Source of the DNA: Elsinoe ampelina
Lineage: Eukaryota
Reading direction: 5' to 3'
Length of the DNA stretch: 64,000 nucleotides
Assembly (NCBI GenBank): GCA_010093995.1
Contig: ML992514.1
Span: forward strand, 336,084-400,083
In this document: positions 12,501 through 37,800 of the stretch, in pieces
How positions within the stretch are numbered: position 1 is the first letter of the stretch
How the letters are laid out: every line of letters starts with the position of its first letter
Position numbers and translations under genes: made by a program
The notes under the pieces: generated by a model
Told to the model about the DNA's origin: nothing
The model's database searches: none
Seen by the model: the letters and a program-made list of their open reading frames with translations, nothing else

Positions 12501-12734
12501 TACTATAAAATTGTACTTGTCGTTTCTACTGTTAATACTAGCTTACTAGTAAGCCGTTCTAAAGGCTCGCGCGTGTTAGTATAGCTTAGGTGGATTCTTA
12601 GTAGACTAATATAAGTTAAGCCTAGGCTCGGTCTATACTATAGTAAGTAATTATAAGGTTATAACTAGTTGCTTAATAAGTGCTCTAGGTTACGGTGTAA
12701 TAGAGTTATCGAGTCTTAATACTTAGCTTAGCTA

Positions 12735-13065
12735 TGTTATAAGCAATTGTTAACTATAGCTAGTATACCGCCTTAGTGTTAGCTTATATAAGGAAATCGT
12801 AGAGTATTACTACCTAGAGGTATTAGAATTAAGGAATTAGAACGATACTACTACTTGTTAAGCACTTAGCTTAGAAGCTTATAACTATAGTAAGGTATTA
12901 TTATCAGGAAGACTACTAGGCTATCTCTAGTAGATAGAGGCTTACTAAGCCTTAGTATTAGCTATAGTACCTACTATAGTACCTGCTATAGCTTTAACTA
13001 TAGTACCTACTATAGTATCTACTATAGTGTCTACTATAGTGTCTACTATAGTATCTACTGTAACA
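12735..13065 (-). repeat. 5' LTR of Gypsy-1 (~331 bp)
   Basis: Begins TGTTATA and ends TGTAACA (TG...CA with short terminal inverted repeat). The right part matches 1-205; the left boundary is inferred from the terminal motif only. Confidence 0.8.
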
Positions 13066-14640: not shown

Positions 14641-14712
14641 ATCTAGTTTAGTATCTAGTTTAGTATCTAGTTTAGTATCTAGTTTAGAATCTAGTTTAGA
14701 ATCTAGTTTAGT
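14641..14712 (+). repeat. Tandem 12-bp repeat (ATCTAGTTTAGT/A) x ~6 in the Copia-1 IN-RT linker
   Basis: Read directly from sequence. Confidence 0.9.
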
Positions 14713-16262
14713 AGCTAAACTAGATACTATCTTAGACTCTAAGTTAGAGCAATTTAGATTAAGAGCTAAGCCTATCTTAGTAGCTAGATAAGAGTTACCC
14801 TATTATACTAGATTAGTTACTACCTCTATTAGACTAATGAGATAAGGCTATTCTAGATCTAAATCTAGCTTAGATCTAAGAATCTTTACTAAATAAACAG
14901 TTCTTTAATACTCTAGCCTTACTACTATCTATAGTAGTATAGCTATCTCCTCTACTACTAGGAGGAGATAAAGCTAAAGGAGATAAGATAGAAGTTTAGA
15001 CTAAAGAGGTAGTTAAAGCTTAGCCTAAGTAACTCCCTTAAAGAATTGCTATAAGGTTAGCTAACTTTCTTCCTAAATATATCCTTATAATAAGAAGAAT
15101 AAGAAAACTAAGAAGGCAAGTATATATTACTATCCTTATATAACCTAATAAGGCTCCTAGATATTACTAAGCCTTTAATGCTTATCTATTAATAATACTA
15201 ACTTAGCCTAAGCTAGAATTAAGAGATAATCTTTTACTACTACTAGCTAATATTAGAGAACTTAAGGCTTATCCTTATAAGAAGTAATTTTAAGAAGCTA
15301 TAAAGGCTAAATTAATTACTTTATACTTAAAATATATATAGACTATTATACTAGCTGCTTAAGTAATAGGTAAGCCTATCTCTTTAATATAGGTATTTAC
15401 CTATAAAGTTAATAATAAAGGAGAGATTATAAAGTATAAAGTAAGAATCTATATAAGGGATAATCTCTAATTAATAGAATTAGAGACTTATATAGCAACT
15501 TTAGTAGCTAAGATCTTTAGAATACTTATAGCTCTACTTACTTATAAAGATATAAAGGCTGTCTAGATAGATATTATTAATGCCTATATTAATAGCTCTA
15601 TTAATAAAACTACCTACTATACTATCTCTCCTAGATTTAAGTTAGTTATAGAGGAGCTTATAAAGGACTACTCTAGTATTACTCTATTAGATGTAATTCT
15701 CTTACTTAATAAAGCCTTATATAGTCTTAAATAAGCTCTAGCTCTCTAGTATACTAAATTTACTACTACTCTAAAGAGTATTAGTTTTACTTAGGCCCCT
15801 AAGGCTCCTTACCTCTAGCTAACCCCTAATATAATAATCTTCTTCTTTGTAGATAATATTACTATTATATACCTTAAGAAGTACAAAGAGAAAGCTAATA
15901 CTATTATTATAGCCCTCTATACTAAATATAAAATAAAGGTGCTTAAAGATCTAAGCTAGTTTCTAGCTATCTAAGTTATAAGAGATAGACTAATAAAGAG
16001 ACTCTAGCTTAGCTAAGCCTAGTATATATAATAGATATATAGTAAGTTTATTATAGAACTAATAAGGCTAGTGTTAATACTACTACTAATTAAGATACTT
16101 TAACCTTATAAAGGCTAAGTATTACTATAAGAGATCTACCTATACTAGTAGAAGGTTAGATCTATTAACTTTATAGCTGTTATTATAAGGCCTAATATTG
16201 CCTTTGCTACTTCTAGATTGTTAGAGTACTTAACTAATCTATTACTAACTTACTAGGGGCTA

Positions 16263-16403
16263 TGTTATATAAACTATAATAGTTAGTAATAAAAAGTATA
16301 TTAAGATATAGTTGTATAATAATTGCTATAGAAAGCTATCTTAGGTTATATATTCTACGCTAAGCCTTACGCTACGTAAGCTCTAGTTAACTATATAGTA
16401 ACA
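16263..16403. mobile_element. 141-bp solo LTR inserted in Copia-1 near the RT/RNaseH junction
   Basis: TGTTA...GTAACA termini; 5-bp TSD GGCTA at 16258-16262 and 16404-16408; the Copia reading frame resumes after removal. Confidence 0.85.
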
Positions 16404-17011
16404 GGCTAGTAAATAGAGTAATCTAGTATCTCTATAAAACTAGAAATCTAGCTCTTACCTTTAATAGCTTAATGCCACCTCTAATCTTCTAAGCCTTATT
16501 AGATGCTAGCTTTAGTAGTTACCCTTTAAGGAAGAGCCTTTAAGGCTATCTATTTAAGATGTTCTAAGGCTTAATTAACTAGAAGGCTACTAAGTAGCTA
16601 ATAGTTATAATCTTAAGTATAGAAGCTAAATTACTTACTCTTATAGAGACTACTAAGTAAGCTATATAGTAGAGGAGGCTAATAGCCTCTATCTATCCCC
16701 TTAAGCATATTAGCATTTAGTATAACAATTAGTAAATAATTAGCCTTATTACTAGTCTAATTAAGAAGCTAAATATATACCTTTACTATGTTAATATTTA
16801 TTATTATTAGCTAAAACAAGAGATTAATTAAGCTAGAGATCTATCTAGTCCTATCTTAGTTATATAGACACTATTAGTAGATATACTAGCTAATAGATTT
16901 ACTAAATTATTGCTACCTAGGAGGTATAAGGCCTTCTTATAATAGCTATCCCTTAAGTTAGTAGTCTACTAACTAGCTATAACAGCCTTATAGCTATTTA
17001 GTAAAGGAGTG

Positions 17012-17207
17012 TGTTAACCGAGGTATAAGCTAGAGCGCTAAGAAGGACCCTAATTTAGTTTATCCCCTAGTAGAACTAAACACTTATCTACTACTCTACT
17101 AGTTTATAATTAAATTAGATAGTTATTGTCTTAATCTGTTGTTATTTAGGAGTTCTATTGATTTAGTTATCTCTTAGTTTATTAGGTTAAGTATTTATAT
17201 AGTTACA
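17012..17207 (+). repeat. 3' LTR of Copia-1 (~196 bp)
   Basis: TG start after the purine tract; ends TTACA exactly where RIP-type composition switches to GC-balanced DNA. Partner LTR is outside the window. Confidence 0.7.
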
Positions 17208-17876
17208 ATCCACCTCAGTTTGGTGGAGAGGGCAGTAATCAATCCTTTTTCCTCCCCCACACAAGTCAACAGATTTTCAGGTTGTTGGTCACCTTCAAAA
17301 TCTCGGTATACATGTCCGAGAAGGCCGCAAACTGAAGCGCCAAGTCAACGACGATCGTTATCTGCATATTGGCGACGGGTCCATCGTACAGTAATCGGGG
17401 ATCACAACACTCTCCACCACATCATAAGGCCATGTAAGCAGACCACTGCAGGAAAGATCTCGAGCTGATCCAATTTTCAGGCGTCATCTTGTCCATCAGA
17501 TCGAGCTCTTCCTCGGATCAGATCTCCAGCAACGCAGGGAGCTCACGGTCACAAAATTCGACTGTCAACAGGCCAACTGCGTTAAGCCAGAGAACTACCA
17601 CGCCCACATCAACCGACTTCAAGCCCATAGTACCCTCCAACTCTAGGTGATTCCAGCATATAGCGCAATGCGTATTTAAAATCACTTCTAAATAGGGCTG
17701 GCCCTTCTTCGTAGCAGCCGCGACCTAACATACCACAGGTCGCTGGAAAGGAGCGTACAAGGTAGTCTCTAATGGCCTGGTTTCTGTCTCGGGGACTGGT
17801 CATAGGGCGACCTTCAGTCTCCATTCTTTGATGTGAGCTTTGAAGCAATTGCAAATATCGTTATCAACTACCGTAC

Positions 17877-18683
17877 CTACCCTGTCGGTGTCGTCTGCGC
17901 CCACCACTCCTCCAGCCTGACTAATGCCTCTTCGTCATGCTTCTGGTCCGACGTCAAGACTTCCCCGTCACCCTGATACCACTCTGGCAGCTTCCCACCC
18001 CGATCAACCACCTTCCCAAATGGCTTGCACCAACCAAAGCCAACCAACACAGCATTTCCAAAGGCATCAAACATCACATTCCTCGGATGGACATCATTAT
18101 GCGCCAATCCGAACATATGCAGCCTCTCCACCGCCGTCTTCAGATCCCTCATCACCACCTTCCGATCCACAACTTGCCCACGTCTCACCTTCTCTTCCAA
18201 AGACATCTCATACTTTTGCAGCACCAATCCGACAACACAACCCCTCCTCGCTAAGCAGCCCTGAAACTTGACCAGACTCCGATGCGGATAGGAGTACAGC
18301 AATCTCAGAACCTCGACCTGTTCCTGGAACGCTTTCGGGATCCAATCATTGTCCTTCGCCGGATCACAGTCTTTCAGGCGAGGGTACTCCACCCATTTAC
18401 CGTCGACAGGGGTGGAACAGACTGGTAAGTCCGGCGTCAGGGGTGGATAGACTGCGGAGTCAAGTACGGGATGGAGTTCGAGAGCGACATCCCGGTCCGT
18501 GAGACCGGCGGGCGACTTGGAGGATGTCCCGTACCGGAAGACGTGAGTCTCGGATACGTAGGTGAAGACGGAGATCTGCTCACCTGTCGAGGGACTGGTC
18601 TCCGTCGTCAGAGAGTGCAAGGAGGCTTTGGTGATGGCCGGCCAGTTGGTGCCAGGTGCGGCGGAAAAGGGTCGGGGTGGCAT
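17877..18683 (-). CDS. Small protein kinase-like protein, probable pseudokinase (268 aa)
   Basis: HNDVHPRN catalytic-loop-like motif and HRSLVKFQGC. DFG is replaced by GFG, and the beta3 Lys position reads VEYP (paralog: VKRP). Confidence 0.8.
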   Translation of the reverse strand: MPPRPFSAAPGTNWPAITKASLHSLTTETSPSTGEQISVFTYVSETHVFRYGTSSKSPAGLTDRDVALELHPVLDSAVYPPLTPDLPVCSTPVDGKWVEYPRLKDCDPAKDNDWIPKAFQEQVEVLRLLYSYPHRSLVKFQGCLARRGCVVGLVLQKYEMSLEEKVRRGQVVDRKVVMRDLKTAVERLHMFGLAHNDVHPRNVMFDAFGNAVLVGFGWCKPFGKVVDRGGKLPEWYQGDGEVLTSDQKHDEEALVRLEEWWAQTTPTG

Positions 18684-19028
18684 GGTGTTTGTGTGCTGTA
18701 AGCTGGAGAGAAGTTGAAGTAGGAACGACGAGAGGTAGGTTTGAGCCTGGCAGGTGTGCGTATATTCGATGTTTCATTCTTCCCATTTTTGCGAGTTGCA
18801 CCAACGACTGTGCGTGATCACTTTGCCGCCGGCACAGCATATCTTGGTAGTACAATGTGCTACCTGCAGGCACCCAGGATCTGTGGTCTCTCCAACGACT
18901 CATAGGCATGTACATTTGGTACCCATACCAGAATCAGCTGAAAAATATCACGCCGTCGCCTCCATATTGGTCAATTGAAGTGCATGTCTTGATACTCACG
19001 AAACAAAAGTGAAAACGCAAAAGTGAGA

Positions 19029-19350
19029 ACAGATGTCCCTCACATGCCACCTCACTCTCACCTCATCTCACCTGACACGAGGCTCGAACCCACGCCCCTC
19101 CCTCCACCCCTGAATTGCAAAAAGGCACCTACGAATCGCTTCGCAGGGCTCAAACACCTCTCTTCGGCCGCGCATCAGGTGTAAAACTGAGTGTAACAGG
19201 CTTCCGAAAGGGGTTATGATTAAACACCTCAAGACGTCGCGCATCTGGACCAACAGAGTGTAACAGCATATCCCGAGAGAAACGCGCGCATCTGGATTGG
19301 CAGAGTGTAACAGACATCTGTGAGGATGAGGTGAGGGAGGGTGAGAAAGG
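19029..19350. repeat. Intergenic repeat module: three imperfect direct repeats CGCGCATCWGG-Nx-GAGTGTAACAG bracketed by imperfect inverted repeats
   Basis: Units start near 19169, 19238 and 19285. CTCACCTCATCTCAC (~19057-19071) mirrors GTGAGGATGAGGTGAG (~19320-19335); ACAGATGTC (19029) mirrors GACATCTGT (19313). Confidence 0.6.
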
Positions 19351-19418
19351 CTATATATCTTACCTCTTGGTCGCGTGCCGTGTGCTTGAGAGAGAGCCCA
19401 GTATCAAGGCATATTGGT

Positions 19419-19482
19419 GATTTTCCATTGTCACATTGCTAACTTCACATTAACCGATTTTCCATTGTCACATTGCTAACTT
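19419..19482 (+). repeat. Perfect 27-bp direct duplication GATTTTCCATTGTCACATTGCTAACTT
   Basis: Copies at 19419-19445 and 19456-19482. Confidence 0.9.
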
Positions 19483-20374
19483 TGTAGTACAGCGGAGGAG
19501 CATGGTATGCTAGGACATTGTTCGCTTCCAAGCAGGCTTCCCTATGATAGAGTTTTATTGACCCTCTGCAAGGCCTCACTATTGCGCCGTCCTTTACATG
19601 CACACCCAAATTTTTGGTACATGGGTGTCCACTGTTCACCGCTCAAAGTCACGGGCCAGACCATGCTGATGCGGCACAGCTCGGCGGCAAAGGAGACACA
19701 CTTGCAATTCTTGCGAACATGACACCCAACGAGACAAGACAAGGCGGGCGGCAACACCTGGGGCTATGCGAGTACTCAAACACTCGGTCTTTGAAGGTAA
19801 TTATAGCGGCGTGAGATAGGTCTATAAGAATGAGCCCTTTTCTCACCATCGGATTTTTCAAGTACAATCAACCCGTCCCTTCGCCGAACTCCATACAACA
19901 ATCACAGCTCTCCTACGCAATTGCTGCAGCATATCTCAGACTTCCTAAAGTAACATCATAGCCATGTAAGTCGTCTCCCACCGACGTCCATACTTCGACT
20001 GACCTCCCACCAGGTGTACCCAGCTCACCACCATCAAGGTTACCATAGGCCCGGACGGCCGTGCCCGAAGGACTGTCGAGGTCAGGACTGTAGACTGCGA
20101 AAGTACAACCTGTCCCCGTTCCGCTTCGTACGTTCCTCCTCGAAACAACAACGGTGGTGGAAGTGGCGGAAGTGGCAGGCGTTAGCGGCATGTTGTCAAG
20201 ACATTTGACGGAGGAGCTACAGCCTTGAACAGAAAGAGGAGGACCTGGACGATTGATAGTGGTGAATTTGGGTAGAAGCGAAGAGGTCGGAATTGCCGGT
20301 GTGTGAAGTGCAGGTGGGCTTCTAATGGATATGCCTCAGTCGTCTCTCTTTTAGCTCCGCTGGCTCTTTGCACG

Positions 20375-21211
20375 CTACCATGTTCTGCTATGTTCTTCCA
20401 GCCACGAACGAATCTTTGCTATTCCGTAGTCATCGCTTTGTGGCAGTGAAGTACAACACAGCTCATCCTCGACCCAGCCAGGCGTTCCTGCACTGAGCAA
20501 TTCTTCACCAAACGCCTTACAAGACCCAAAGTCGATGATGATCGGACGCTGCTCTTCATCCAGCAGGATGTTCATTGGATTGATGTCGTTATGAGCGAGT
20601 CCTAGTGAATGGAGATGTTGGACACCCGCTTTGATCCCAGCCATGATACTACCGATGTCGATAGGTAGTTTCTTGTCGTTGACATGCTTCTCAAGCGTGG
20701 TGTGGTACTTGTCCAAGACGAGACCTGCGATGAAGCCCCGCCGGAGAAGACATCCATGATATCCGATCAGATTCGGATGTGGATGCTTGGATATGACCTC
20801 GGTGACTTTGATCTCATCCATGAGAAGCTGAGCAATGACTCCAGACCCAGCGAGATCGTCGTACCATGTCATCTTTGGGCGCTTGACGTACAGCTTTTCA
20901 TCCGATTCGCCACGAAAGATTGTCACGTTCTCCGTCGGGAGGGGATAGATGTCCTCATCCGGGACCTTCTTCAGTGCAGTCAGGAAATCCTCGTCCTTCA
21001 TCTTCAGCTTGGGTATCGTGGTAGATCCAAAGTAGAACACGTCCTCGGAGTCAAGATATGCGAACGTCGTGCGCTTGAAGCTGCCGGTATCGACATCTGT
21101 GACTTCGCAAAGCATCTTGCGGTCGGCCTTTGTCAGCTGAGGCATGTTCTGGCAGTGCTCGGTGTTTTCTTGTGCGTCTGAAGTGGCTGAGCCCATGGTA
21201 TCCAGCACCAT
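20375..21211 (-). CDS. Small Ser/Thr protein kinase-like protein (fungal single-domain family)
   Basis: YVKRP, HPHPNLIGYHGC, HNDINPMN, DFG and GTPGW motifs. First ATG is at 21211 (the ORF track uses an upstream TTG at 21268). Confidence 0.85.
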   Translation of the reverse strand: MVLDTMGSATSDAQENTEHCQNMPQLTKADRKMLCEVTDVDTGSFKRTTFAYLDSEDVFYFGSTTIPKLKMKDEDFLTALKKVPDEDIYPLPTENVTIFRGESDEKLYVKRPKMTWYDDLAGSGVIAQLLMDEIKVTEVISKHPHPNLIGYHGCLLRRGFIAGLVLDKYHTTLEKHVNDKKLPIDIGSIMAGIKAGVQHLHSLGLAHNDINPMNILLDEEQRPIIIDFGSCKAFGEELLSAGTPGWVEDELCCTSLPQSDDYGIAKIRSWLEEHSRTW

Positions 21212-21818
21212 AGTCTCCTCTTCTAAGATACTGCTAGCAGCCAACGCTGTGCGCTGTCCTGGAGACAATCTACGAGTCTCCGCTCAGGAAGCTCTATCGA
21301 GTCCGTCAGAGATGCGGCAAGCGAGAGAGATGTGGCGCAGTCAGTCCGTCTCCGAAACGACCACCTTCAGACTCATTGCTAGTGTCTGGCTACGTACGAC
21401 TCACGATTGAAGGCCTGAGAACATCTAGCAACATCCAGTCTGAGGCATAGGTGTGGAGAGAACGGGCTACAATCGTGCTGGACCGCGTACCAAGATTTTT
21501 AGGTTGTCAGTCACACCTCAGAAAGGTGAGAATTGTGTAGAACTGTCAGCATCTAGTAGGAATATTAATGCAAATACTACTAGATGTGAATAGCAAATCT
21601 TCAAGTCCGCTATTTGTACTTGGATACTAGGTTCTGGTAGTTATTATACTATAGGTCCTACCAGCACTGGCTATTCCTATACGCCTAGCGCCATGCACCA
21701 AAATCTGATAAGCAATAAGTCATTACTCATAGGCACCTTATGGTCGTCTCAAAAGGCCGTAGCAAGCTCCATATGCGACCATTCCCTCCACGATACTTCC
21801 CTTCAAATCGCACCCCTC

Positions 21819-24800
21819 CTAGAAAGCCCCTCGAATCTTCGCATACAACTCCGTGTCCAAAAAGTTATAATGCGGATCCGAGAAACAGAACGGCGCCCTC
21901 AGCAACGTCTCAGCAGTCGGCCTATCAGCCGGATCACTGCGTCTTGTCAGTCTGTGCCCCCATGCCACCCCTTCGTTCTCAGGACAATACTCACATTGTA
22001 AAGCAATCATACATGAAACTCAACGCCGCCGGGCCCACCACACTCGACACATCATCCGGGATAGGCGGCGCCTGATTCAGACTCCCCAGCTTAAAAATCG
22101 CTCCGATCGCCTCCTCCTTACTCCACGGCCGATTCCCCGCGAACATCTCCAGCACAACGCACCCGAGGGACCAAATGTCCACTTTGGCCGAATAGCCCTG
22201 GTTGCTCGCGTCCGGGTCGCCTTGGGCTTGGCTCTGCGCACGGATGACCTCGGGAGCCATCCAGAAGACGCTTCCCTGCATGGAGTTTGAGATGTCGTTG
22301 TTGTAAGGGTTGCGAGACTTTTTGGAGATGCCAAAGTCGGAGATTTTGCAGGTGCCGTCGAGGTCGAGGAGGATGTTGTCTGCCTTTAAATCGCGGTGGA
22401 GGATGCCTTCGCGGTGGAGGTAGGCGAGGCCTTCGAGGGTTTGCCGCGTGAGAGAGGAGACGACGGATTCTTCGAATTTGCCGTGTTTGCGTAGGACTGA
22501 GCCGATGGAGCCACCGGAGATGTACTCGAGGAAGATGCTGATGGAGTATTCTTTGCGTTCGCAGCCGAGGTATTGCACGATGTTGACGTGGTCGAGGTGT
22601 TGCATTGTGTCGATTTCAGAATCGAGGGCTTTGACCATTTCGCGGATCTTGGAGGGGTCGGCGTTGGGGGCTTTGGGGTTGACTTCGACTTGTTTGACAG
22701 CGAGTAGCTCACCGGTGGTGGTGTTCATACCGAGGTAGACACGGCCAAAGGTACCTTTGCCAATTAGCTGACCGCGCATCCATTTGAAGGTCTGTTGGCG
22801 GCTGGGCTGGTCGCGAGAGGACAATGGGAGATTGTCTTGCGGTATGGTCTCGAGCTGGAACAGCCGGGAACCTCGAGATGGCTTGATCTGCTCGATCTTG
22901 GCACCAAACATCTTGGTCGACTTGCGGCGGACAATGCTCGATTCTGAAGGCTTGAGGGCGCTGATGCGGTTCGGTAGCGCGCTTGCGAAGTATCCGCTAG
23001 GAGTGCGTTCCGATCCGATGGACGAGTTTGACACCTGACTGTTCTTCGAAGACATGCTGTACGCTCCTTTGACCACCTCACGGATCGACTTGGTCCGTCC
23101 GAGACCGCCTTGCTTCCGGAGTGATCTCGCGGCCATGCTTTGCAGCTGGTCGCGGGACTTGAGAGTCGACTCTTCACTGCCCAAGGTGTCATTTTCGTCA
23201 AGGTCAGCAAGTGATGTCCGGCTGGAATTGGAAACATTGAACCATGATGATCCAGCAGTATCGACCGTGCTTGGGTCGGTGCTCTGTGTGAGACTCTCGC
23301 TTCCACTTGATCCCTCCTGCCCCTCGTCTACCATGGGTTGATCCAAATCGACGTTCGGGAAGAACTCGTCAAGATGCTCAACAAGTGCTTCGGCTGGAGG
23401 ACGATTGGCCCACACATCACTAGCGAAGCTCGCCCTTCTATCGAAACCATTATCCTCAGCTGGTGATTCGCCAGATTGATGGCCAGATCCGGCCGAGCTA
23501 GGATGGAACTCGATGCGTCGTTTACCGTCACCATTACGGCTGACGTTTGGCGAAGCTTGCCGTTCTTCATCACCATCAATGGCAGGCGAACCGCCTTTGA
23601 GAGAGACTTTGCCGGAAGATGCCGCGGACTTTTCATCCTTACGCTTGTTAATGGGCACTGCAAAAAGATCATCGTCAGAATCTTCATCGTCATTATCAGG
23701 CGGCGCTGGAGCAGGAGCTCTGTTGGTAAATGTGACCTCCGAGTATGGCAGGTCGAAACTAGGACCATAACTTTTGCGAGTGCCGCGTCGGTGCAGCTGA
23801 CTTTCCTCTGGCTGAGCCGTGCTGGGACTAACATCTGGGCTCTTCGCTGAAAGATCCCCAATCTCGGTTTCCGAAGGTAGTCGTAATTTCAAAGCTGGTC
23901 GCTCGGTAGCGGCATTGCGGAAATTGTCGTTCTGTGCATCTTCGGTAGCGTAGTCTGGAACAAAAAATGGTAAGCCACCCTTGGACATTGTGATAGGAGA
24001 TCGTGGAGAGCTACCATTGCCAGGGCTGTTTCGGCCGGTTTGCTGCTGTTGCTGCTGATTGTTGAAACCGACACTCGCCAGTGCTGTCTTCCCAGCTGCG
24101 CGGCGTTCCAAGATGGTCTCCTGTCTCTGTTCAGGTCGCTTCAATGTGCGCGCAGCATCTTCACCAAGCTGTTTCCATGGGTCCATCTTATGGTCACTGA
24201 TCCTGCTGCTGGGACGCCGTCGGATAGAGATGGTCCGCAAGGTATCACTTGGTTCTGATGGTGGACGAGGTGCTGTCCGCATCGGACGTGTGTGGTCAGA
24301 CTTCCGATCGTTGAACGATCCTGAGCTGCGGTTGTCATAAGGAGATTCTCGACCTTTGTCAAAGTCGATGACCTTGTCTCGTCGGATACTGGGGTCGTAG
24401 CGGTTTTGACCACCGTCCTTTTGAAGCTGTGCTTTGCGCTCGGCTAGGTAAGCCTGTTGCTTTCGCGCTGTCTCCCTGCGATGCTCATCTGCTTTTTGCT
24501 CCAGTATACGAAGTCGCTCATTCTCAGGTATGCTGATTGATTCACGCGACTTGTCAAAATTCCTGAGGTAGCCGGGAGTTGGACGAGGACGAGCTGGCGG
24601 CGCCAACGACTCCCCTGTCTTCATGCCTTCGGACTCTCCACGATCCTCTTGTGGTGCCGTCATACGCTTGATGATGCTCTCTTGGCCCGACGATGGAAGT
24701 CCATGAACATGATTGAAAGGAGAAGTCGGGAAACCACTGCTCATGGCTGCTGTACTTGCGCCATCTGCTGAGAAGCCAGTTCTGACAAACAATTTGAGGC

Positions 24801-27129
24801 TGGCGATAGGGTCTGCAAGCCGAGAACGGGCTGAAAGCATGAGAGAGTCGGACAATCCATCATCGTGCTCGATCTGACCTGGAGCCGTGATATGAAAAGT
24901 GATAGTATGATCATTCGGTATACCAAGATTGTAGCAGATGATGCTCTTCATGTCCTCAGCCGAGTCAGCACCAGACAGATCCACCAGTCTATAGTTCCAG
25001 CCATCTGGAGTCGCAAAGACAAACTTGCGCTCGACTGGTGTCGGAACCTTGTTGTCCCAAGGTCGGTTACTGGGTAGAGCATTCGCAGAGGCTATAGCTT
25101 GCGTATCGGCGGGACTGTTTGGCGGACTGTCTTCTTTGGTGGCTTTGTGCACATCCTTTCGGCTAATCTTCTGCATCAGCGCAGGTGATTTGTTGTCATT
25201 ATTATGCTTGTCTTTGCGACTCTCATGATGCAGCTTGTCTAGTAGATTCGTTTCACTTGCAGCGCTGTTGAGGGTACTGTGGTTGCGACTCTGTTGGTTG
25301 CCACTTGTCGTGTTCTGAGGGATCAAATTTGCTTCGGAGCTGCTGAAATGGTTTGCATAGTATCCTTTTGGAGGCGCATGAGCAGTCTTCGCAGTATGCG
25401 TTTTCGGACTGTGGTGAGGGCTGGATTCCCGAGGCGGACCACGGTGGCCATTATCTTGAGCAGGGCTGGATCTCCGGGCTGGGCCATTCAGACCTCTCAG
25501 TGCGTCCTGGGAAGAGACACTGCGACCCGTTGTGGTGTCAAGGTCCCGTCCCATCGCAAGGTGAGTCAACTTGTCCATGCCCGACTTGTTGCTGGCTTTT
25601 CTCCGTTCTGCCTCCTTCGCAGCTTGCGCCGAGGTTGGATAGTTTGCTGGCATACGCATTCCAGGGCTTTCTTCACCAGAGTTGGCGGTGTTTGGGGTTG
25701 AGCCTGTGATCTCTTGACGCCCTAGTCGCGGTGAACTCTCGACTCCTCCATCGGTACCAGCACTTGGTACACCGGCGGAGCCGTTTCTCTGGTGCCGAGA
25801 TGGGATGCTCGATGCACTGCTACCATTCGCGCTAGTCACAGCATTCTCGACAAGATGCCTGATAAGCTTCCTGGCTCGTTTCCCCTCCTCAAGCGTGGCA
25901 AGTTTGTCGTATGGAATTCCCTGAGCAGAACATTCTTTTGCGACTTGTGGATAGATGTTGTTGTACAGGATAGGCATGTTTACAACCGCGGATCTACCAA
26001 TGTCCAAGAAATGAGAACCGTGTAGATTCAAATGCCTGAAAGCATCTTGCCATGTTTGTGGAAAGTTGTTCGCTGCCAGCCATGAGATCACACGGTCCAC
26101 TGGCCAAGCAAGATCATGTGGCGATGGCGGTGGTTGCTCGTGGCGATCTTCTCTATGAGGTATCGACTGAGCTTCAGTACCGAGTTGTGAGCTTGTCTGC
26201 TGTGGAGCAGGAGACGAGTACTCTTGCTTCTCTTTCGCGGGCATAACCATCTTGGACTTTTTGCTCGAAGGCGTGGGCGGAGCAATGCTGATGCTAGAGG
26301 AGTGCTGCAGGGGTGCGGGTGACTGTTGTAGATTTGAGCTGTGTGGCAAAACGCTATACTGAGGTGGAGGACCACTTGTAGGAAAGGCTGACTGGGGCGT
26401 CTGCTGTTGTTGCGACTGGTTCTGGCTCTGATGGGACGTAGTGTATGAGTAGAGTGTGCTGGAGTCTGACCATCCATTCTGTCCTACATTCGACGAAGCT
26501 GGGTGATCGTTTGGATATGGTGGATTGTTCTGGTAGTCGTGATTGTACCAGGAATTGGCGGGTTGAGAGAACATGGGCCTCAGATTCTGCTGTGTTGGAG
26601 AGTGCAAAGGTGGTATGCCAACGCCCGGGCCAAATGACTCTCCTCCAGGTATGTAAGTAGCGGAGGTTAAGGGCTGGTTGTCCGGAGGTAGAGGCGGCAT
26701 TGACATGTACGCAGAGTAAGCTGTGGGATCGTAGGCTCGGGGCTCCCTGTTCATGTTGATCGGCGGAGGTGGTGGATAGCTGTTCTGGTGATTGAGTCCG
26801 CCCCAAGGAGAGTTCTGTGAGGGCGGTGGAGGCATCATCATGCCATTGTGCCCTGGATGACCGCTTCTGGGTGGCGGAGGAGGGAGGTACATGCCCTGGT
26901 GCTGCTGGGTTGACAAGGGAGGAGGAGGTGGAGGGACATAGCCTCTGCCCACTGCTTCAACCTGTGCTGCAGAAGCATGTCTTTGTCCAGGCGCGGCAGT
27001 CCCAGGAGTTGACGGTGTGTTCCTCCTGTAGATATCTTGCGCCTGCTGAGCTGCAGCGGCGTTTGGATCGGCGTATGTATGTGCGCGCGGCCGTGGGCTC
27101 GTACTGTATGGTGGCTGTTGTGTAGCCAT
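21819..27129 (-). CDS. BCK1: MAP kinase kinase kinase of the cell-wall-integrity pathway (Bck1/Mkh1/BckA); 2 exons
   Basis: SAM-like WPVDRVISWL; conserved WANRPPAEALVEHLDEFFPNVDLD; C-terminal STE kinase GKGTFGRV, AVKQV, HRDLKADN, DFG, GSVFWMAPE. Intron 21937-21994 (GTGAGT..CTGAC..CAG) joins FTI/DPADRPTAETLL...AF*. ATG at 27129. Confidence 0.95.
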
Positions 27130-28145
27130 GTCTGAGGTGAGACGCAAGGTCTACTGACCTCTTGTGTCAAGATCTCGATGAACGACCTTCATTCGGCTGG
27201 GTTGTGATGACAGGTGTGGTCCTCAATGCCCTGCTCTTTCTCTACTCGCTGAGTTACGAAGTACTGAAGCTACGGCGAGCGAGATGCGATCGAGATGTGT
27301 ATAGCGGAGGCGCCGCTCATGTTGGCACGAATGCGCCCAGAGTCTCAGTGTGCTCGGCTTGTGCTTTGTGTGGCCGACAGTCTTGTACAATGTTTCTGAG
27401 AGTCTCGGTAACTTTCTGGGAGAAGCAAAAGGATTTCGTGCCTGTCTGTAGCAAAAAGTATGGTTCCTGTAGGCTCGACTGGCTCGTGCCTCTGTGCAGT
27501 AATAACGTGCAGGAGTAGGACGTCGCCGTTTCACGCTACCCGATGTAGGGCAGAAGCGCAAGATCCGGGGTCGTATTCGGCCGTTGAGAAGGGCGACACG
27601 AGTCTTTGAGGATGTTGTCTGATGACAGGCAATGTCGCGAGGATACTCCGCTCCCTCTACCAGTACTACCTACCAGAGCAACACGGTCAAGTTCAAGCGA
27701 TGACGGGCCGGGTCAAGGAATGCGCTTGTTTCCTTAAACTCTGCGCTTTACCTCTCTGGGGTATAGCACAGAGTTGCTTTGCTTTGCTTTGCTTCACCAC
27801 CTCAGTACTACCAGGACGGCTTCCACGTCCTTTGACATGTCAAAAAGAAACGGTCTTGTGTAATGGTCAAATCTTGTGGAACTATTCTTAGCCCATCGCT
27901 TACCTGTCTGGTAGTTAATCTGACTTTATGCCCTCGCAACAGTGTTCACCTGGTCAAAGTGAGAAAATGTTTCATTAGAGGGTTTTAGCAGCTGTCGGTC
28001 GAGTGACAGCCAGTGGGTCTGTGGCTTGTTAGCGTCCGCCGCCGTTGTACTCCTTCCTCACCAAAATAGCTAGCGGCCGGCGTACAATTCGAGCACCTTA
28101 GCGTAATCCTTCTACAGTGCTAATATTTGCTACCTCGTCGTCAAT

Positions 28146-29294
28146 ATAGAGCGTAAATTTGTCTAAAAAGGTGTTAGTGCAATTATAGAGGACAAAGAGC
28201 TTAACTTTAATAAGATATTACTTATCTATCTATACCTCCTCTGCTGCTATTGACTTAATTGCCCTTGCCGCTGCTATAGCGCTAAATATAAGAAGAAGCG
28301 CTCTGTCTATTAGTATAGAAAGCCTTATCCTTATTAGTAGTTTGACTAGGATATAGACTAGTAGTATAATAACTCTTTCTATAACAATATAAGGTTCTCT
28401 AAAGGCTAAATCCTCGAGCTAGTATAGCTACTCCGGATCGAAGAACTATAATATAGTAATTGTAATTAGCTATTAGTAGAGATAGCTATCTATATAATAC
28501 TTTACTAATTAACTTATCTAAACTAGTAGAATAAGATTTACTATATTTTTAGCTACTCTTAAGGTTAGCTATCTAGTGTCTTTATTAACGTAATTATATA
28601 CATCGATAGCCTCTTCTATAATAAGGTTACTTAGTATCCTTAGCTAGATAACTATAAGCTTCTAGAGTAATTTACTAAGGCTATTAGTAATACTAGAGAG
28701 TGTAATTAGATCTAGAGTTTTATTAATAGTACCTTTAAAGGCTTCTAAAGACCTACTATTAGTTAGTAGCAAGTCTATAGTAGCTATTATAGCAGCTATA
28801 GCCTTAAATTTCAAGGCATTATTATACTAGATAGATTAATAAGCTTGCTTATTAGACTCTTTAGTAGTAAGAAGAATAACTAGACAATGTAGAATTTATT
28901 AATTATAAAGGATAAACTCTACTATATTAACGCTAGATATATACTAGAGAGAGAGCACTTATACCTCTATAGTAACGCTACCTATTATAATAGTAAATTA
29001 GTAATAGTACTATTTTAGTATAAGACTAGCTAGTAGTTTCTTAGTAATCGAGAGTTAGCTTTTAATACTAAGATGTCGTTAATAAGAATTATAATCGAGA
29101 ACGGCTTTAGTAAAGTATAGTAGAAGTAGATATATATAGGCTTTATAAAAGGCCTATATAGAGGTAAGTAACTAGTTAGCTCCTTCTATTAAATAGTAGT
29201 ATTACTTACTAATATCTATACCTATTTAGAAGGCTCTAATAGTATATCCTTATAGTTTAATTATAATCCGCTATTAGTAGAAGAATATTTATAG
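28146..29294 (+). pseudogene. RIP-killed Harbinger DDE (DDE_Tnp_4-type) transposase, ~383 codons
   Basis: Single frame reads I*SFINSTF (=IWGFIDGTF), YSLKFQG (=HGLKFQG), NN* (=NDW), LYSNATY (=LYGDAAY), FNTKMSLIRIIIENGFS, LLTNI..., PLLVEEYL*. Confidence 0.9.
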
Positions 29295-29632
29295 ATTAAA
29301 GAGATTACTAAGGTAGAGGTATAAAGTTAAAGAGCTTAAAAAAGTACTAAGTCTAAAAAAAGTAACTAAGGTAACAAAGATATAGAGGTAGCTATAAGGG
29401 TAGCGACTAATACTAGTATTTAGTTTTATATAACAATTCTTATATTAATTAATTCTTTAGCGGATTTAGAGTTAATTAATATATATATCGTTATAATATT
29501 TAGTATATAATACTTTTATCTTAAAGCTTAGAGATCTATCTATATTAGCTTTACCTAGTGTAAGATAGACCGAGATAGACACGTAATATAAATTGTACTT
29601 AATAAGGCACGTAGTAGTATCCGTGCCAGTTT

Positions 29633-29834
29633 TAATACGAGATAGATACGAACTAGATTTAGTTAGGATACAGTTTAAATTAGTTATGTAATCTCGGTAT
29701 TATAGCCTAGGCTTCTAGCTACTTTGCCCTCGATATTATATATGCTTTATACACTAGTTTTCTTCTTCTTTTTCTAAGTGTTAATATCTTAATAAATAGA
29801 TATAATTAACCTTTTATCTTACTAGTTGTAATTA
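29633..29834 (+). repeat. 5' LTR of Gypsy-A
   Basis: Colinear 202-bp direct repeat of 50511-50712; differences are almost all transitions. Confidence 0.93.
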
Positions 29835-32800
29835 CTATATCGAGACTTCGAAACGACTATAACTAAGTAATAGAGCTATTAAACTATCTAGTTATTCTAC
29901 TACTTACGTAACTACTAATAACTACTACTTATAAAGAATTAAAGAATTAAAGAAGAAGCTATTACAACTATAGTTCCTGCGCACACTATAATAGATTCTC
30001 GCTACTACTATATAGGTTAATACTATAAACCTTAAAGATATAAGAAGAAGGTAATAAGTCGAGTTATAGATAACTCTTAAAGAAAGTAGGCTACTAGCTA
30101 AAAATTTTAATATTTCCTTTGTTACGTATTAACGTTTTATACTGTTTTATTTACGACTAACTATGCTAAGTATAGCTTAATCTAACTATAGCGATAAAGA
30201 GCGCTACTAAAGTAAGCTACTTTAACTTATCTCTAACAATAATAACGCCTCTATCTACTCTCTCTCTACTATAATCTTTTTGCTCTGTCTAACGCTATAC
30301 TCCTTAAGAAGCTATAGGAAGAGTATAGTATATAGGCACTAAGAGACGTATTTAACTATATTAAGTCCTTCTATAATAAGTAAACCGCGTAGGTAAAAGG
30401 CACTTATACTAATACTCTCTACTATTACTACGAGTTAGATACTACTTAGGCCTAGCTTAGTAACCTCTAATTCGAACTAGATATATCTTAGTCCTATACT
30501 AACGGCGTTACTACCTAAGCTACTCGCTACCTAGATAAAATCTAAAAGCTTAAGGCTAAGGTAAACTAACTAAGAAACGAGATAGAGCGTAGTATACTAG
30601 CTCTTTCTATATATAGCTCTACCTTGTTAGAAAAGATACTAGACTCTACTATCTTTAGTATAGGTACACTAGAGTAGTTCGAGGTCTTTAAGTACTAGAT
30701 AAAGAATAAGATATATACTAATATAGATCGTTTCTCTATAAGGGACACCTAGTTTACCTATCTATACTTATACCTCTCTAGAGAAGTCTATACCCTTATT
30801 ATAGACTTAGCTAGTAATAACGTTATTAGCGTTAAAGAGGTTCTTACTCTCCTAGCCTAGCGCTTTAAGGATCCTAACTATAGAGCTACTATATATACTT
30901 AGTTTACTAACCTCTTCTAGCGTAATAGCATATTTAACTCCTTTATTAGCGAGTTTAATAAGTACGTCCTTTACGCTAAGATCGCTAAAGAGAAGTAGCT
31001 ATACTAGATCTATTAGAAGATATCTAATAAGCTATATAATACTCTAGTTAACTATAACACTAATAACCTTACTGCCTTTATTACTAAGGCCTACGCTACT
31101 AACTATAACATCTAATAGAATAACCTTATTACTAAGCGCACTTAGGCTTTACGTTCTATACTAGCTATAAGCTACGCCGCTACTATACTTACTTATATAT
31201 CTTATTCTACCTCTACGCCTATAGCTCTATTTACCTTTTACTCTATCGCTAGAGGTGCTCTATAGCCTTTTCGTCTAGCTCTAGTACTTACCTATTACGT
31301 ATATAGTAAGCCTAGATATATCTCTACTAAGTGTATAGCTAGTACCTTAGAGAAGGCTACTTACGCTACTATACGCTCTATACGTATTAGCGCCGTAGAG
31401 GAGATATAGTAGCTTTAGAATTGCTTAGCCGAATTAAGTAACTAGATCGACACTAGTTCGGCCTATAAACTAGATCTAGTTTAGCCTTAGTTTAACCCTA
31501 AAATAGACTATAAGTCTACTAGCTACTCTAGCTAGAGAAATAAGTAGCTAAAGAATAAGTTCTATTCTCTAGCGGAATAAGAGCAATTTAAAATAAATTT
31601 AAAGAAGGTATATATTTAATAAACAGCGTTATTAGCTACTACATCCCCGCTATTATAACTCCTATTACTATTTACGACCCTTATAACTACTCTTATACTA
31701 TTACGCTCTAAGCCTTTATCGACACTAGCGCGCTTATCGGCGCTATAGTTAATTATAACGTCCTTAACAAGCTAAAGAGCTTCGGCTACCCCGTAACGTT
31801 AGCTAGCTCTATTTAGCTTTAGGCTTATAATAGTGTTCTAATAGAGTAAGTTACTTATAGTGTTTCTCTTACTACTACTATCTCTAGTAAGCTAAACGCC
31901 CTTACTACCTTTCGTATTATAGATATTAGCCGATTCAACATTATCCTTAGCCTTAGCTAGCTTAAGGCTAACAAGGCTACTATCGATTATAAATACAGCT
32001 AAGTTACGTATAAAGAAGAGTTTTTACTAGTCGTTATTAAGTAGGAGCTACTATAGCTAATTAAAAGACTAGGATCTAGATCTAAGCCTAGCTTAGATCT
32101 AGGAATCTAGCTCGGCAAAGCTACTACTCTAGTTTAGAACTAGTTTAGTTCTAGTTTAACTTATAAACTAGGTTCTAGCTTAGCTACTAAGATAGAACGA
32201 ACTAGACTATATCGACTATTAGCTCTTAGGTCGAACTTTAAGCTAAATTAGAGAGAGTTTAAGCTAATCTCCTATAGTACTTAGTTAATGTATAAGTTCT
32301 TCTACGTACTTGCCTACGTAAGTAATACTAAGTAAGAAGAGCTAACTATTGCTTTTATTAGCGCTACTACCTTTATATTAGTAGCTAAATACTAAAAGAA
32401 TAAGGTATTTATAATCTTAGTAAAGAATATCGAGGACTACTACTAAATAGCCTCCGAACTAGAACTAGACTCTATAGTAGTTCTCCTAGAGGAGCTATAA
32501 GAGTTTACTAATGTCTTCTCTAAAGAGTAATCTAACACGCTTCCTCTATATCGGCCGGATTTTAACAATCGAATTATACTTAAGGATAGAGCTAAACTAC
32601 TACGTACTAAACCCCTATACTACCTATTACTAGAAGAGCTCGATATAGTAGAATAGTTTATCTATAAGTACCTTAATAAAGACTTTATTATACTAAGCTT
32701 AGCTAGCTATTCCTTACCTATTCTTTTTATTTATAAGTCTAGTAGCAAACTTTGCCTTTATATTAATTACTATAGCCTTAACGAGGTAACTAAGTAAGAT

Positions 32801-34878
32801 ATCTATTCTCTCTCTCTTATTAAAGAAACACTTACGCGCGTAAGTAAGACTAAATAGTTTAGTAAGATTAACATTTATTAAGTCTTCTACCGCCTCTATA
32901 ATTCTATTAATAGTAAAGACCTTACTATATTCTCTATATATATAGGTAACTTTAAGTAGCTAGTAATACTATTTAGCCTTACTAATGTCTCTACTATATA
33001 GTAGAGATTTATAAATTATAACTTTATTAATATACTAGAGTGCTTTATATCGATCTATCTAGATAATATTCTTATCTATACTAATAGCTCCTACTAGGAG
33101 TATACTAAGCATATTAAGCTAGTACTCTAGAGGCTCTACGAATTAGGCCTAAATGCTAATATTAAGAAGAGTAAGTTCTACCTAATAGAAGTAAAGTACC
33201 TTAGTATTATCGTTAGCTAAGATAGAGTTAAGATAGATCCTAAGAAGATAGAAGCTATACAAGCGTAGAAATAGCTAGCCTCTAGTAACACTACTTAGGT
33301 AAGGAGCTTTATTAGCTTCTATAGCTACTACTATTGCTTTATTAAGGGATTTAGCACCATCGCTAAACTACTAAACGATCTACTTAAAAAGGACACTATA
33401 CTATAGAACGACAAGTATACTACTATATTTAATTATATAAAGTATACTATTATAAGTATGTCTATCCTTATATACTTTAATTACTTAAAATAAATAGTCC
33501 TTAAGATAGACGCCTCTAATACTACTACCGCTAGAATTCTATTATAATATAATAAGTCTAATATTCTCTAGTCTGTTACCTTTTTTAGTAAATCTATTAA
33601 TAAAGCCGAACGTAATTACGCTATCTACGACAAGGAACTATTAGCTATTATCTAAGCCTTTAAGGAGTAGGCCCCCGAGCTTATAAGTACTTAATCTAAT
33701 AAGGCTATCTATGTTCTTACTAACTACTAATCCTTAATACACTTTATAAAGACTTAGAAGCTATTACGCTACTAAGTGCGCTAGGCTCTCTACCTTATAT
33801 AGTTTAACTTTAAGATTATATATAGGCCTAGCGCTACTAACGGTAAAGCTAACGTACTTATAAGGAGAAATAGAGACGTACTATATTTAAAAGAAGACTC
33901 TAATCTATACTAGACACTACTACTATATAAGGTGCTAGATTAGCGCATTATTAACAAACTAAATCCAGGTTGCATTTAAACTGGATTACTAATCTAAGCC
34001 GAACTAAGATCTAGTTTAGTATCTAGTTCGCGAACTAGTTTAGTATCTAGTTCGTCTCCTATTTCGCCTCCTATTTCGCTACCTATATCGGCGCCTATTT
34101 CGGCTACTAAACTAGGCATCTACGTAGCACCTATCTTAGCTATAGAAGAGTCTTTACCTCTTTTCGATAAAGTAGCTAAAGCTAACCTACGAGACTCTAA
34201 TTTTAAGACAGTTCGTAGCATCTACTATATAATAGAAGCCTTCCTAAAGAGGAAATAGCTACTATCGACCGATGTTATAATTAAAAAGAGAATACTATAG
34301 GCTAATAGCTAACTAATCGTGCCTTTCTCTATAGCTATAAAGGTTATCTAAGGAGTTTATATATCGAAGGATTATACACACGTAGGAGCTACTAAAATAG
34401 CTACTATAATTAAGTCTACTTTCTATATCCCTAGATATAATAGTAACGTTAAGAGGTTCGTCGCTAACTACTATAACTATAAGCGCTTAAAGGCTCGCTA
34501 TAGCTTACTAGCCGGCCTTCTATCGCTATTACCTATTCCGGTAAGACTATAGTAATATATTACTATAGACTTTATTACTAGTCTACTCTTAGTAGACAGC
34601 TATAACGTAGTACTCTATATTGTCGACTACCTATCTAAGGAATGGTATTTAATTCTATACTTCTCTAGAGAAGGCGACACTTTAGCGTTTAAGACTACTA
34701 AGCTATTATTCTTCTACGTATAGAAACTATATAGTCTACTAAATAGTATTACCTTAGATTACGGCTCTTAGTTCGTTAGCAACGTATAGAAAAGGCTCTA
34801 CTAAATTCTAAAGATTACTACTAAACTGTCTACTATAGGGCATCTATAAATAGACAGCTAATTAGAGGTTATAAATTA

Positions 34879-37800
34879 TGTTAAGAATATAGCTCTCTCT
34901 AGATAATTAGGTTATAAAGTTATATAACCTTAAGTTATGTAATGCTAAGGCCTAGGGATTTATAGCTGTTCTTTCTTCTAGTAGATAGACTCCTTTTAAT
35001 TAATTAACTCGTCTATTACCTAATTAGTGTACGATTAGTTCTATATAATATTTCACCTCTAAACGTGCCTTCTACTTAATAGGTTATAAGCCCGGAGCTA
35101 TAGCACAAGTATAGGATTATATATACCGTAGTTAAGTATCTACGTTATTAAAATCAGGCCGGATTCTATTAGTATTCTCCTCTATTTCTCCTTTATTATC
35201 TTAATCTTAGATAGATTAGTAGAGGTAGTATAAAGCGTAAAAGACTAGTTGCTTAGTATATTAAGTAGGATATATTAAGACGTCTACTATAGATTTATTT
35301 CTATAATTGCATAACAGCTGCTATTTATTAGCTATAAACAACTAAATAATATTTGTTTTATTACTGTTTTCTCTCTTAAGATTAAGTACCTATTAATCTT
35401 ATTAACAATTATCTAGTTAAGACTAGTATAGAGATCTTAACACCTAGAAGAATTAACTTAAAGGTTATTAACCTCTAGATTCTAACCTTTATTTATTTAT
35501 TTATAAAGTTCTTTTCTACTCTAGAACTTATCTTTAGCTATAGAAGACAATAATACCTAATTAAGGTAGCTAGTACCTACACTTTCTAAAGATAACTATA
35601 AGAAGTAGTTCTAATAAAAAGAGCTCTAGCTTATATTAAAGAAGGTATTATAGACCCTTACTTCCCTTACTAAACTATTAGTAATAACTCTAGGGTTATT
35701 ATTAACTTCCTTATTTAACTTCTAGTATTTTCCTCTATTAGTAAAGGAGAATAGTGCTATCCTTTACTAGATCTATAGATATATCTTTAAGAGAGATTAA
35801 GAGATAATTTAGAAATAGTAGTAGGCTAAACTAGCTTAGGAGAAGCTAAAGAGCAAGTATATAAAGTAGATAGGTATATAGGTAAGACAACTTTAGAAAG
35901 AGTTTATAATATATACTATAGGTAATAATATAACTATCTTAGATACCTAGTTATACCTAACTATATTAGGAAGAAGAATTAATAAGTCTTTAGAGATTAA
36001 GTAATACTCCTTACTAATAATAAGAATTTAAAGACTACTTAGTACTCTTCTAGCTTTATAGTTAACTACAAGAGATGCTTTAGATACTTAACTCTACCTT
36101 AGTATAGATAAGATCTATAATATTCTTAAAGAAAAGGAAGTATAAAAGGGAAAAGGGAAATCTACTATATTTATAAGAGGTAGGCTATAATAAGGAACTA
36201 GTAGGAGCTTAAATTATATATATATCTTATATAAGGAACCTAGATATTCTATATTAAGGTGTCCTTATCTCTAATAAGCTAAGAAGTATGTCTAGCTATT
36301 CTATAGAGTTACTAAAAGAAGTAGCCCTATAAGGAGGTAGTTACCTAAGCGCTAGAAACTACTTAAACTTATAAGATAGCTTACTAAGAGAATAGACTTC
36401 CTTAAAGTAGCTAAATTAAGAAGGAGAGGTAAAGCCTATCTAGCTACTAAGAGTAGTTTATTATTAATATCTCTATCTCTACTACTAGAAGTTCTATTTA
36501 GGGATAAAGAGCTTAAAACTATAGGTTCTACATTAGAGGTTTAAGGTAAGCTTCTATATTATTAGTAGATACTTAACTCTAGAGTATCTAACTATATAAT
36601 AGACAAGCTAACCCTCTTTAGAGGCCTATTAAGCAAGATTTATACTTAATAGATCTAGGTTAGAGAGGGTTACCTTTAGTTATAGTTAATAGGAACTATA
36701 GTTATTAAGACTAAGAAGGGAGATAAGATAAAGATATAAGCTCTTTATATACCTAATCTTAGTATTAATTTAGTCTCCTATTATAAGCTATACTCGGATT
36801 TAAAGGTTTCTAAAGTTCTTAATTTAAATTCTTTTCTTATTCTTAATTAGTAAAAGTAACTATTACTTAAAGCTAGAATTTAAGGGGGGGTATATATTAT
36901 CTAATCCCTCTTTAAGTAATTAGCTAATTAAAAGCTATATTCTAGATCTAAGCCTAGCTTAATTCTAAATCTAGCTAATTAAGATTTAGTATTCCTTACT
37001 ACCTAGCTTATAATTATATTATAGACTAAGTATATATATCTAACCTAGAATAAGTAATAAGAGAATCTTATTAACTTAGGACCTAATAACTCTAAGATAG
37101 AGTATTAGCTCTAGTATAGGAGATTTACTTACCTTAGGATTAAGAAGCTTAAGGATCTTTATAAAGTTATAACCCTTAAGAAACCTATTAACCTAAACTA
37201 TAATCTATCTATTCTATATAAGGTCTATTCCCTTACTAAGATAAGGAATAGAAGAGGTAAAACCTTATAGAGAAGACTAAAGGTTCTTTAGCTTATCTAT
37301 ACTAACATCTATAGCCTAATTAAAGTAAGTAAAGAAGGATTTAGATACTTCCTAGAGCTTATAGATAGCTACTTAAGGATAATATAGATTAGTCTACTTA
37401 AGATAAGAGATAAAGCTCTATAAAGGCTTATTAAGTAAAAGCTAAGAGTTAAGAAGGAAAGTAATACTAAGGTTAAGGTTACTAGATTAGATAATACTAG
37501 TAAACTTAATAAGATCCTAAAGTAGTAAAAGCGCTAAGAAGGTATCTATTATATAACTACTAAGCTATATAATTTAATTTAGAATAGACTAGTAGAGAAA
37601 GACATCTAAACCTTAGAGAATAGCATAAGAGCAATACTTAAGGACTTAAAAATACTAAATAAGTTCTAGCCTAAAGTAGTTTAGGTAGATATATATCTAA
37701 GAAACAGAATAGTAACTAGACCTATAATTAATAATAAGCAAGTTATACCTATTAAGGCCTATATAGGTATTAAGCTATTAGTTAATTATATTAGAGTCTA

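Follow-up and report, generated by a model that had tools for sequence, protein, structure and literature searches.

A short dyad module common to Copia and Gypsy retrotransposons in pol linkers of Elsinoe ampelina, possibly retained as an internal cis signal

The stretch of DNA analysed here, referred to as the window, covers 64,000 nucleotides of the plant-pathogenic fungus Elsinoe ampelina (contig ML992514.1, positions 336,084 to 400,083; C14:336084-400083 of the 28.27 Mb genome that was scanned). It holds two Copia elements and one Gypsy element, termed Copia-1, Copia-B and Gypsy-A, and all three carry the same short dyad-symmetric sequence in the linkers between the protein domains of pol. 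Copia and Gypsy are usually treated as evolving apart. Even the two Copia elements have no DNA homology around the sites, and their closest protein relatives differ too. Two blocks, 1-17 kb and 28-52 kb, are strongly affected by repeat-induced point mutation (RIP), with a composite index of about 2; besides the three elements they hold others. The elements and the four sites are located as follows:

13064..17271, plus strand: Copia-1 element, its 5' part interrupted by a 13-kb element at 1-13063
29633-34880 plus about 49926-50712: Gypsy-A, in two parts
34881..40222, plus strand: Copia-B element, nested inside Gypsy-A
14853..14879, plus strand: Copia-1 dyad core in the linker between integrase and reverse transcriptase (RT); pol frame ..LDLNLA*I*E.., with the integrase and RT matches in the same frame
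32076..32102, plus strand: Gypsy-A dyad core in the protease-RT linker; pol frame ..GSRSKPSLDLG..
36942..36968, plus strand: Copia-B site 1 core, between protease and GAG-pre-integrase; right arm degenerate, complete in the sister copy at locus L046
38077..38103, plus strand: Copia-B site 2, the fourth site, in the integrase-RT linker; a diverged dyad in the window's subfamily (13 copies)

The shared module is real and probably homologous between the families. As a preliminary description based on the letters alone had reported, Copia-1 14853-14885 and Gypsy-A 32076-32108 are identical at 30/33 positions and differ by three transitions (letters and coordinates were checked), while Copia-B 36942-36961 equals the first 20 nt of the Gypsy-A copy exactly. 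Protein-homology placement agrees that these three sites all lie in pol linkers, on the sense strand. In its amended form the core is a 13+1+13 dyad centred on C, YYRGATYYRARCC-C-GGCTYRGATYYR; the common stretch reaches about 20 nt upstream of it, to a CCAAT-type box, and the whole module measures about 50 bp. The fourth site was discovered with a pattern for the left 18 nt preceded by non-T, which has 36 matches in the genome, and other Copia-B subfamilies hold a typical core there in 25 copies.

A genome-wide scan identifies the sites as family traits, a transition-tolerant 26-mer having 110 exact matches against 0 for the control. Sampling of 30 of these loci gave 21 Gypsy-A and 9 Copia-1 or sister copies, and Copia-B site 1 is present in 30/30 aligned copies. 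In one public DNA run, which may come from the window's own sample, contigs carry the Copia-1 flank into the Gypsy-A core position, so the sharing is not an assembly join. Searches with the core and its arms, sampled at 68 loci, led to the three families in 65 cases, to chance matches in gene regions in two, and to a weak half-site in another Gypsy element in one. Eight solitary half-sites that were examined comprised seven variants of the three families and one weak match in another Gypsy. These counts speak against a free, tiny palindromic element that inserts into linkers, which the preliminary description had also considered and which we regard as highly improbable. The direct repeats of 10-11 bp (the CCAAT boxes) that flank both Copia-B sites, 51 and 50 nt apart, would suit such an element, but the flanking repeat is absent in Gypsy-A (0/34) and Copia-1 (0/23), no full copy was found outside the three families among the sampled loci, and the sole presence/absence polymorphism of the module is a deletion of 11-12 bp in one copy (L076). 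A miniature inverted-repeat element was rejected on similar grounds, with flanking repeats in Copia-B only and no full copy elsewhere in the 68 loci. An Rfam search of four loci returned no family match; with an E value of 0.79, the one match elsewhere was at chance level.

This case shows the extent to which short matches and palindromes are inflated by RIP; claims of this kind hence need family-level allele counts and RIP-matched nulls. Whole-window shuffles, of which 0/100 reached the match, were dropped as too lenient, and Markov simulations of RIPped DNA were used instead, based on a non-redundant library of 100,145 bp. The exact match of 21 nt falls within this null (longest null match 19-26 nt). 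The Copia-1/Gypsy-A pair, with a score of 25, shares second place among the non-self pairs, the top one being formed by terminal inverted repeats, and this score is attained in 8/180 simulations. A single pair is thus near chance in RIPped DNA, whereas the three-way match (25 and 21) was reached in 0/180 simulations; weaker triples (20/20) appeared in 16/180 simulations and at two other spots in the real library. Over all copy pairs, Gypsy-A and Copia-1 have a median score of 25 and a maximum of 31, other family pairs 11-18, and the score of 31, between family-typical copies, was again reached in 0/180 simulations. Furthermore, a degenerate 27-mer with at most two mismatches finds only the four window sites in 100 kb, against a null mean of 0.05 (60 simulations), the pattern being a post hoc one drawn from these sites.

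The same figures bear on convergence, in which RIP would turn low-complexity linkers made of similar hexamers into one and the same string of letters. Counts in 348 kb of RIPped DNA are 35 for CCAG, 43 for CTGA, 70 for CCAA, 388 for CCGG, 727 for CCGA and 10,120 for CTAG; CpA and TpG after C or T are almost wholly erased, and 10/27 letters of the core are ambiguous as a result. This ambiguity, together with linkers rich in such units, near-chance single pairs and arms that differ between families where CpG survives, lends convergence some appeal, but it has to face the three-way match and the scores up to 31, the fixed CCAAT spacing, and the use of three reading frames, which excludes peptide convergence. 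We consider it quite improbable.

The state before RIP was taken from allele counts only. In the 66 Gypsy-A copies that have the usual centre, a CpG is left at the centre in 19 cases and in the right arm in 14 (hand count), but the left arm and the outer left position retain it in 0/66, where about 14 would be expected. The less-RIPped Copia-B copies L058 and L045 have CpA at the outer left position, and the Copia-1 sister L175 keeps TpG in the left arm. An ancestor composed of CCGG throughout, as had been proposed, therefore fails at the outer positions, and the perfect stem described for Gypsy-A is partly RIP-made. What stands of the Gypsy-A hairpin with its 3-nt loop is that it folds (RNA z -3.5), compared with -0.9 for the Copia-1 and -1.0 for the Copia-B copy of the window. 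Copia-B site 2 has left-arm CpG in 21/38 copies and is read in the sole frame in which TpG would be a stop. The unambiguous arm pairs amount to 9/13. As a separate observation, CpG is nearly gone from both Copia copies (13001-17000 and 36001-40000; CG/GC 0-0.1), whereas the adjoining Gypsy DNA has 0.4-0.8, a contrast which indicates that mutation history differs between adjacent elements.

Three codon frames are used by the cores. Gypsy-A and Copia-B site 1 share one, Copia-1 uses a second and Copia-B site 2 a third, and the box frame differs between Gypsy-A and Copia-B site 1 by a 1-nt spacer difference. Peptide selection therefore cannot account for the sharing; judged from its sequence, the core is a DNA feature and not a peptide. 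On the other hand, the linker peptides point to a donor. The RIPped Gypsy-A linker reads LIKRL...LDLE/G..LGKA, and intact relatives have I-L-K/R-R in 8/11 inspected and L-D-P-x in 7 linker cases among the top 40; the order of the two is kept in P0026 and P0029. In intact Copia relatives, no core-derived peptide was seen. Since the ends of the Gypsy-A core match clade-conserved linker peptides and Copia relatives have none, Gypsy-A would be the donor: the comparison with proteins 39-47% identical suggests that Gypsy-A has the module as coding DNA of its own, and that the Copia elements received it as a graft. A protein-level search for intact relatives had its best full-length matches at 31-47% identity, with one RT-only fragment at 57%, and strict core-derived peptides occurred in 0/159 and 0/147 proteins, relatives too distant for a test of the module. 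At the DNA level, a metagenome pattern scan gave two matches, both in bacterial genes, IMG/VR gave 0 pattern matches and none for two protein queries, and plasmids gave none.

Upstream of the core there is usually a CCAAT-type box, and at Copia-B site 1 a second one follows it:

14832..14840, plus strand: RIPped box of CCAAT type in Copia-1, 19 nt upstream of its core, with an additional change in the window copy
32055..32063, plus strand: Gypsy-A RIPped CCAAT-type box, 19 nt upstream of the core; in 34/34 copies
36922..36930, plus strand: Copia-B site 1 CCAAT box, 18 nt upstream; in 41/41 copies, with CCAAT kept in 2 and AATCA in 7
36973..36981, plus strand: second CCAAT box of Copia-B site 1, 6 nt after the core; in 41/41 copies, with CCAAT kept in L115

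The Copia-1 box has the family form in 21/23 copies and would have been CCAAT before RIP, a state kept in no copy of that family. At Copia-B site 1 the two boxes stand 51 nt apart as a direct repeat of 10 bp; Copia-B site 2 has a box 17 nt upstream in 21/38 copies and a second one 6 nt after the core in 25/38. The letters CCAAT survive in L058, L103, L115 and L045. The spacer between box and core is similar in sequence between site classes too, which points to copying.

The short units of which the core is made recur elsewhere in the elements:

14641..14712, plus strand: in-frame tandem array in the Copia-1 linker; its 12-nt repeats use the core's short units
33960..34060: linker between RNase H and integrase of Gypsy-A, where half-sites drawn from the core's vocabulary occur
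29633..29834, plus strand: Gypsy-A 5' long terminal repeat (LTR), with its 3' copy at 50511-50712; the start holds the core's short units

Clusters of them are found in three linkers of Gypsy-A, in the 12-mer array of Copia-1, whose unit number varies widely between copies, and at the start of the Gypsy-A LTR; no core lies inside an LTR, and each element has one or two cores. At 29677-29694 a reverse CCAAT box and an E-box are fused in the Gypsy-A LTR, and the pair is intact in L141:5446-5462. The Copia-B LTR also has an E-box-like RIPped word, and the Copia-1 and Copia-B LTRs both have GCCAAG-like words, which resemble a PacC site. The sharing of units between linkers, array and an LTR start with CCAAT and E-box favours an enhancer-like role at the DNA level. 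As for conservation, the core is a conserved island between Copia-1 subfamilies: in the comparison with two sister subfamilies, transversions or indels number 0-1 in the 27-mer, 10-12 in the upstream tile and 5-6 in the downstream tile.

The best explanation, to which we assign a probability of about 0.38, is that the module arose once, was copied between families and was kept as an internal enhancer-like cis module. The unit of about 50 bp, consisting of CCAAT box, short spacer and dyad core, would have originated, probably within the Gypsy-A lineage as part of its own linker-coding DNA, and would then have been copied into Copia pol linkers at three places, perhaps by template switch or cDNA capture between nested elements. 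Insertion-tolerant linkers would keep pol open whatever the frame, and the module would be retained as a DNA-level cis signal, a putative internal enhancer-like site which the host CCAAT-binding complex and a second factor recognising the dyad or its half-sites may bind, and which may affect transcription. Of the shared cis-signal put forward in the preliminary description, the shared DNA feature in linkers, non-peptide and beyond RIP convergence as a three-way match, holds good, while the signal itself, the leading idea, is putative. In a wider and more tentative form, against which we would place the odds, Copia and Gypsy may trade a functional control module across superfamilies, hidden in pol linkers in any frame, and unrelated elements may use the same host regulator (the CCAAT complex with a dyad-binding factor, or the initiator tRNA). 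If true, the passage of a short module between Copia and Gypsy would be a cross-superfamily exchange of control sequence within coding linkers, and would point to a switch, open to testing, for the activity of transposons in a fungal plant pathogen.

A number of results weigh against the idea of a copied and retained cis module. Linker windows as conserved as the core make up 12-17% in the comparison with one Copia-1 sister subfamily and 58% with the other, and the core of Copia-B site 2 is the most diverged tile nearby between subfamilies (15-16/27 identical). In the main Copia-1 form, a fixed G-to-A change (23/23) breaks the dyad symmetry. The CCAAT box occurs in 0/9 Copia-1 sisters and is missing from 17/38 Copia-B site-2 copies; the boxes of Gypsy-A and Copia-B site 2 are explainable by Pro-Ile codons of conserved peptides, that of Gypsy-A also encoding part of a clade-conserved linker peptide, and the CCAAT evidence is weakened by this. 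The core is absent from five other RT-bearing segments. A host-promoter motif was considered and rejected, host DNA showing no enrichment of the centre 11-mer (11 vs 8 in the control). The arm 13-mer has 410 matches vs 38; among the first 100 on the list, 19 seem to be unRIPped, which is close to what composition alone would give (counted and estimated by hand). The CCAAT-plus-left-arm pattern has 9 vs 0, mostly overlapping open reading frames (ORFs) and without the dyad. Finally, the searches described above found no intact close relatives of the three families.

The dynamics of the centre base introduce another alternative. It is flipped in 4/70 Gypsy-A copies, which represent three separate events on the tree (12 of 1000 columns have three or more events, in a post hoc comparison); one flipped copy is known from Copia-1 (L082) and one from Copia-B site 2 (L048). 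These flips fit inversion between the arms, though each equals one C-G transversion. They might be a footprint of neutral capture, in which the hairpin stalls reverse transcriptase or replication, and the segment becomes the one most often swapped and homogenised among subfamilies, with no selected function. An abrupt change of subfamily divergence at the core and the nesting of elements in one another would be in keeping with such capture. Yet elements of different superfamilies would have had to capture the segment in frame again and again, at three places; the Copia-B sites amount to no more than half dyads; and the arm inversion read from the flips faces the plain transversion and the post hoc nature of the column test. 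We judge it rather unlikely.

Another alternative concerns the primer of reverse transcription, for which one further feature is needed:

35082..35095, plus strand: Copia-B primer-binding site; last 9 nt common with the core centre (RIP-degenerate)

The same type of primer site is found in three Copia families, namely Copia-B, Copia-1 and a third (window 35082-35095, L159:2991 and L180:1497), and its unRIPped form in L180 is the complement of the anticodon arm in a tRNA-Met(CAT)-like sequence, as it would be in half-tRNA priming. This tRNA-like sequence, at L184 (G000:C11:1007700-1008050), we take to be the initiator from its features. ARAGORN made no call for it, and its 5' part seems displaced, perhaps by a non-canonical intron. 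At the RNA level, the core centre might then pair with the 5' anticodon-stem strand of the initiator tRNA-Met that primes these Copia elements, which we think unlikely; the role of such a box, in packaging, dimerisation or primer loading through an additional contact that does not prime, is doubtful as well. The tRNA stretch that pairs with the primer site is also complementary to nine nucleotides of the core, seen intact at Copia-B site 2; with TpG in the left arm, the state kept by L175, the match would be 10 nt. In 6/6 site classes the sense strand has C as the centre base, and extended contacts between tRNA and genome are known for Ty1 and Ty3 (PMC5371799). However, the match is short and post hoc, at about 1 in 1000 by a hand estimate before many looks, and its RIP-degenerate form occurs 26 times in 100 kb. 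Pairing is broken in the main Copia-1 form, the box lies in the hairpin apex, and Gypsy-A has no Copia-type primer site after its LTR; the missing ARAGORN call counts here too.

As regards the surroundings, a 47-nt inverted repeat (91%; 27967-28013 and 52293-52339) brackets the whole 24-kb RIPped block, and its two arms probably represent the termini of a DNA transposon with the nested retroelements inside. At 1-13063, the 13-kb element is of LTR type, with 203-bp repeats that are 97% alike, a 12-nt internal array and a very divergent RT on the minus strand (6734-8041); no second copy of it was found in 400 kb of examined genome tiles. Two small kinase-like ORFs lie at 17877-21283, between the end of Copia-1 and a MAP kinase kinase kinase-like gene (21991-27150). 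One protein of the window clusters with a protein of Elsinoe batatas, in keeping with an Elsinoe host. At locus L004, a Copia-1 copy has an internal inversion.

A literature search, mostly without subscription papers and supplements, found no published motif common to the pol linkers of fungal Copia and Gypsy elements. Several known systems resemble the module in part. The RM boxes of Sireviruses are palindromic CGG/CCG motifs in LTRs and internal regions, near-identical between distant members and proposed to be regulatory (PMC2829016). As in those boxes, a dyad motif is common to distant LTR retrotransposons, here with a CCCGG centre and outer arms that are not CpG-based. RM boxes are confined to plant Copia elements, with 8-32 copies per element in non-coding DNA (PMC2829016), whereas the module has one or two cores in pol coding linkers of both Copia and Gypsy, with a CCAAT box. 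An assignment to RM boxes was rejected, given that at least eight copies clustered in the LTR and upstream of env were not found, no core lies in an LTR and the host is a fungus.

Closer in host is the site known in GalEa Copia elements as the Conserved Hairpin Site (CHS), whose 'extended CHS' of 33-62 bp is shared between families of one species (PMC5445492). Both are hairpins of fungal Copia elements shared in this way, but the GalEa site stands after the 5' LTR, where it replaces the primer-binding site, and belongs to one clade (PMC5445492), while the module is in pol. It was set aside for the location of the cores in pol linkers and for the tRNA-type site that Copia-1 and Copia-B have after the LTR. 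CHSeq1 (CTGATCAGT or RIPped CTAATTAGT, 9 bp, with a complementary CHSeq2) was likewise discarded, the look-alike upstream box keeping CCAAT, not CTGAT, in less-RIPped copies.

The VANC target motifs of VANDAL transposons are short, tandemly multiplied, family-specific and non-coding, and are bound by an element-encoded protein (PMC5735166). Their tandem short units recall the Copia-1 12-mer array. An anti-silencing target of VANC type, with its binder gene in the same family, was rejected for Gypsy-A, where pol homology ends about 75 bp before the 3' LTR and leaves no room for such a gene; a self-encoded zinc-cluster binder was excluded for the same lack of room for an extra gene in Gypsy-A. 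The extended tRNA-iMet contacts of Ty1 and Ty3 and the anticodon-loop priming of Ty5/copia are located in untranslated regions and were shown experimentally (PMC5371799). The putative tRNA-complementary box likewise lies away from the main primer site, but its match of only 9-10 nt is in pol, and is also present in a Gypsy element without that primer site.

[quoted passage not shown] For Ty1, factor binding was shown and is not shared across superfamilies, whereas the module is known from its letters alone, and the two sequences were not compared (PMC10968565). The module is like the Ty1 enhancer in lying inside the element and in coding DNA, and the internal sites of Ty1 thus provide a precedent for enhancer sites within an element, which we count in favour of an enhancer-like role for the module (PMC10968565).

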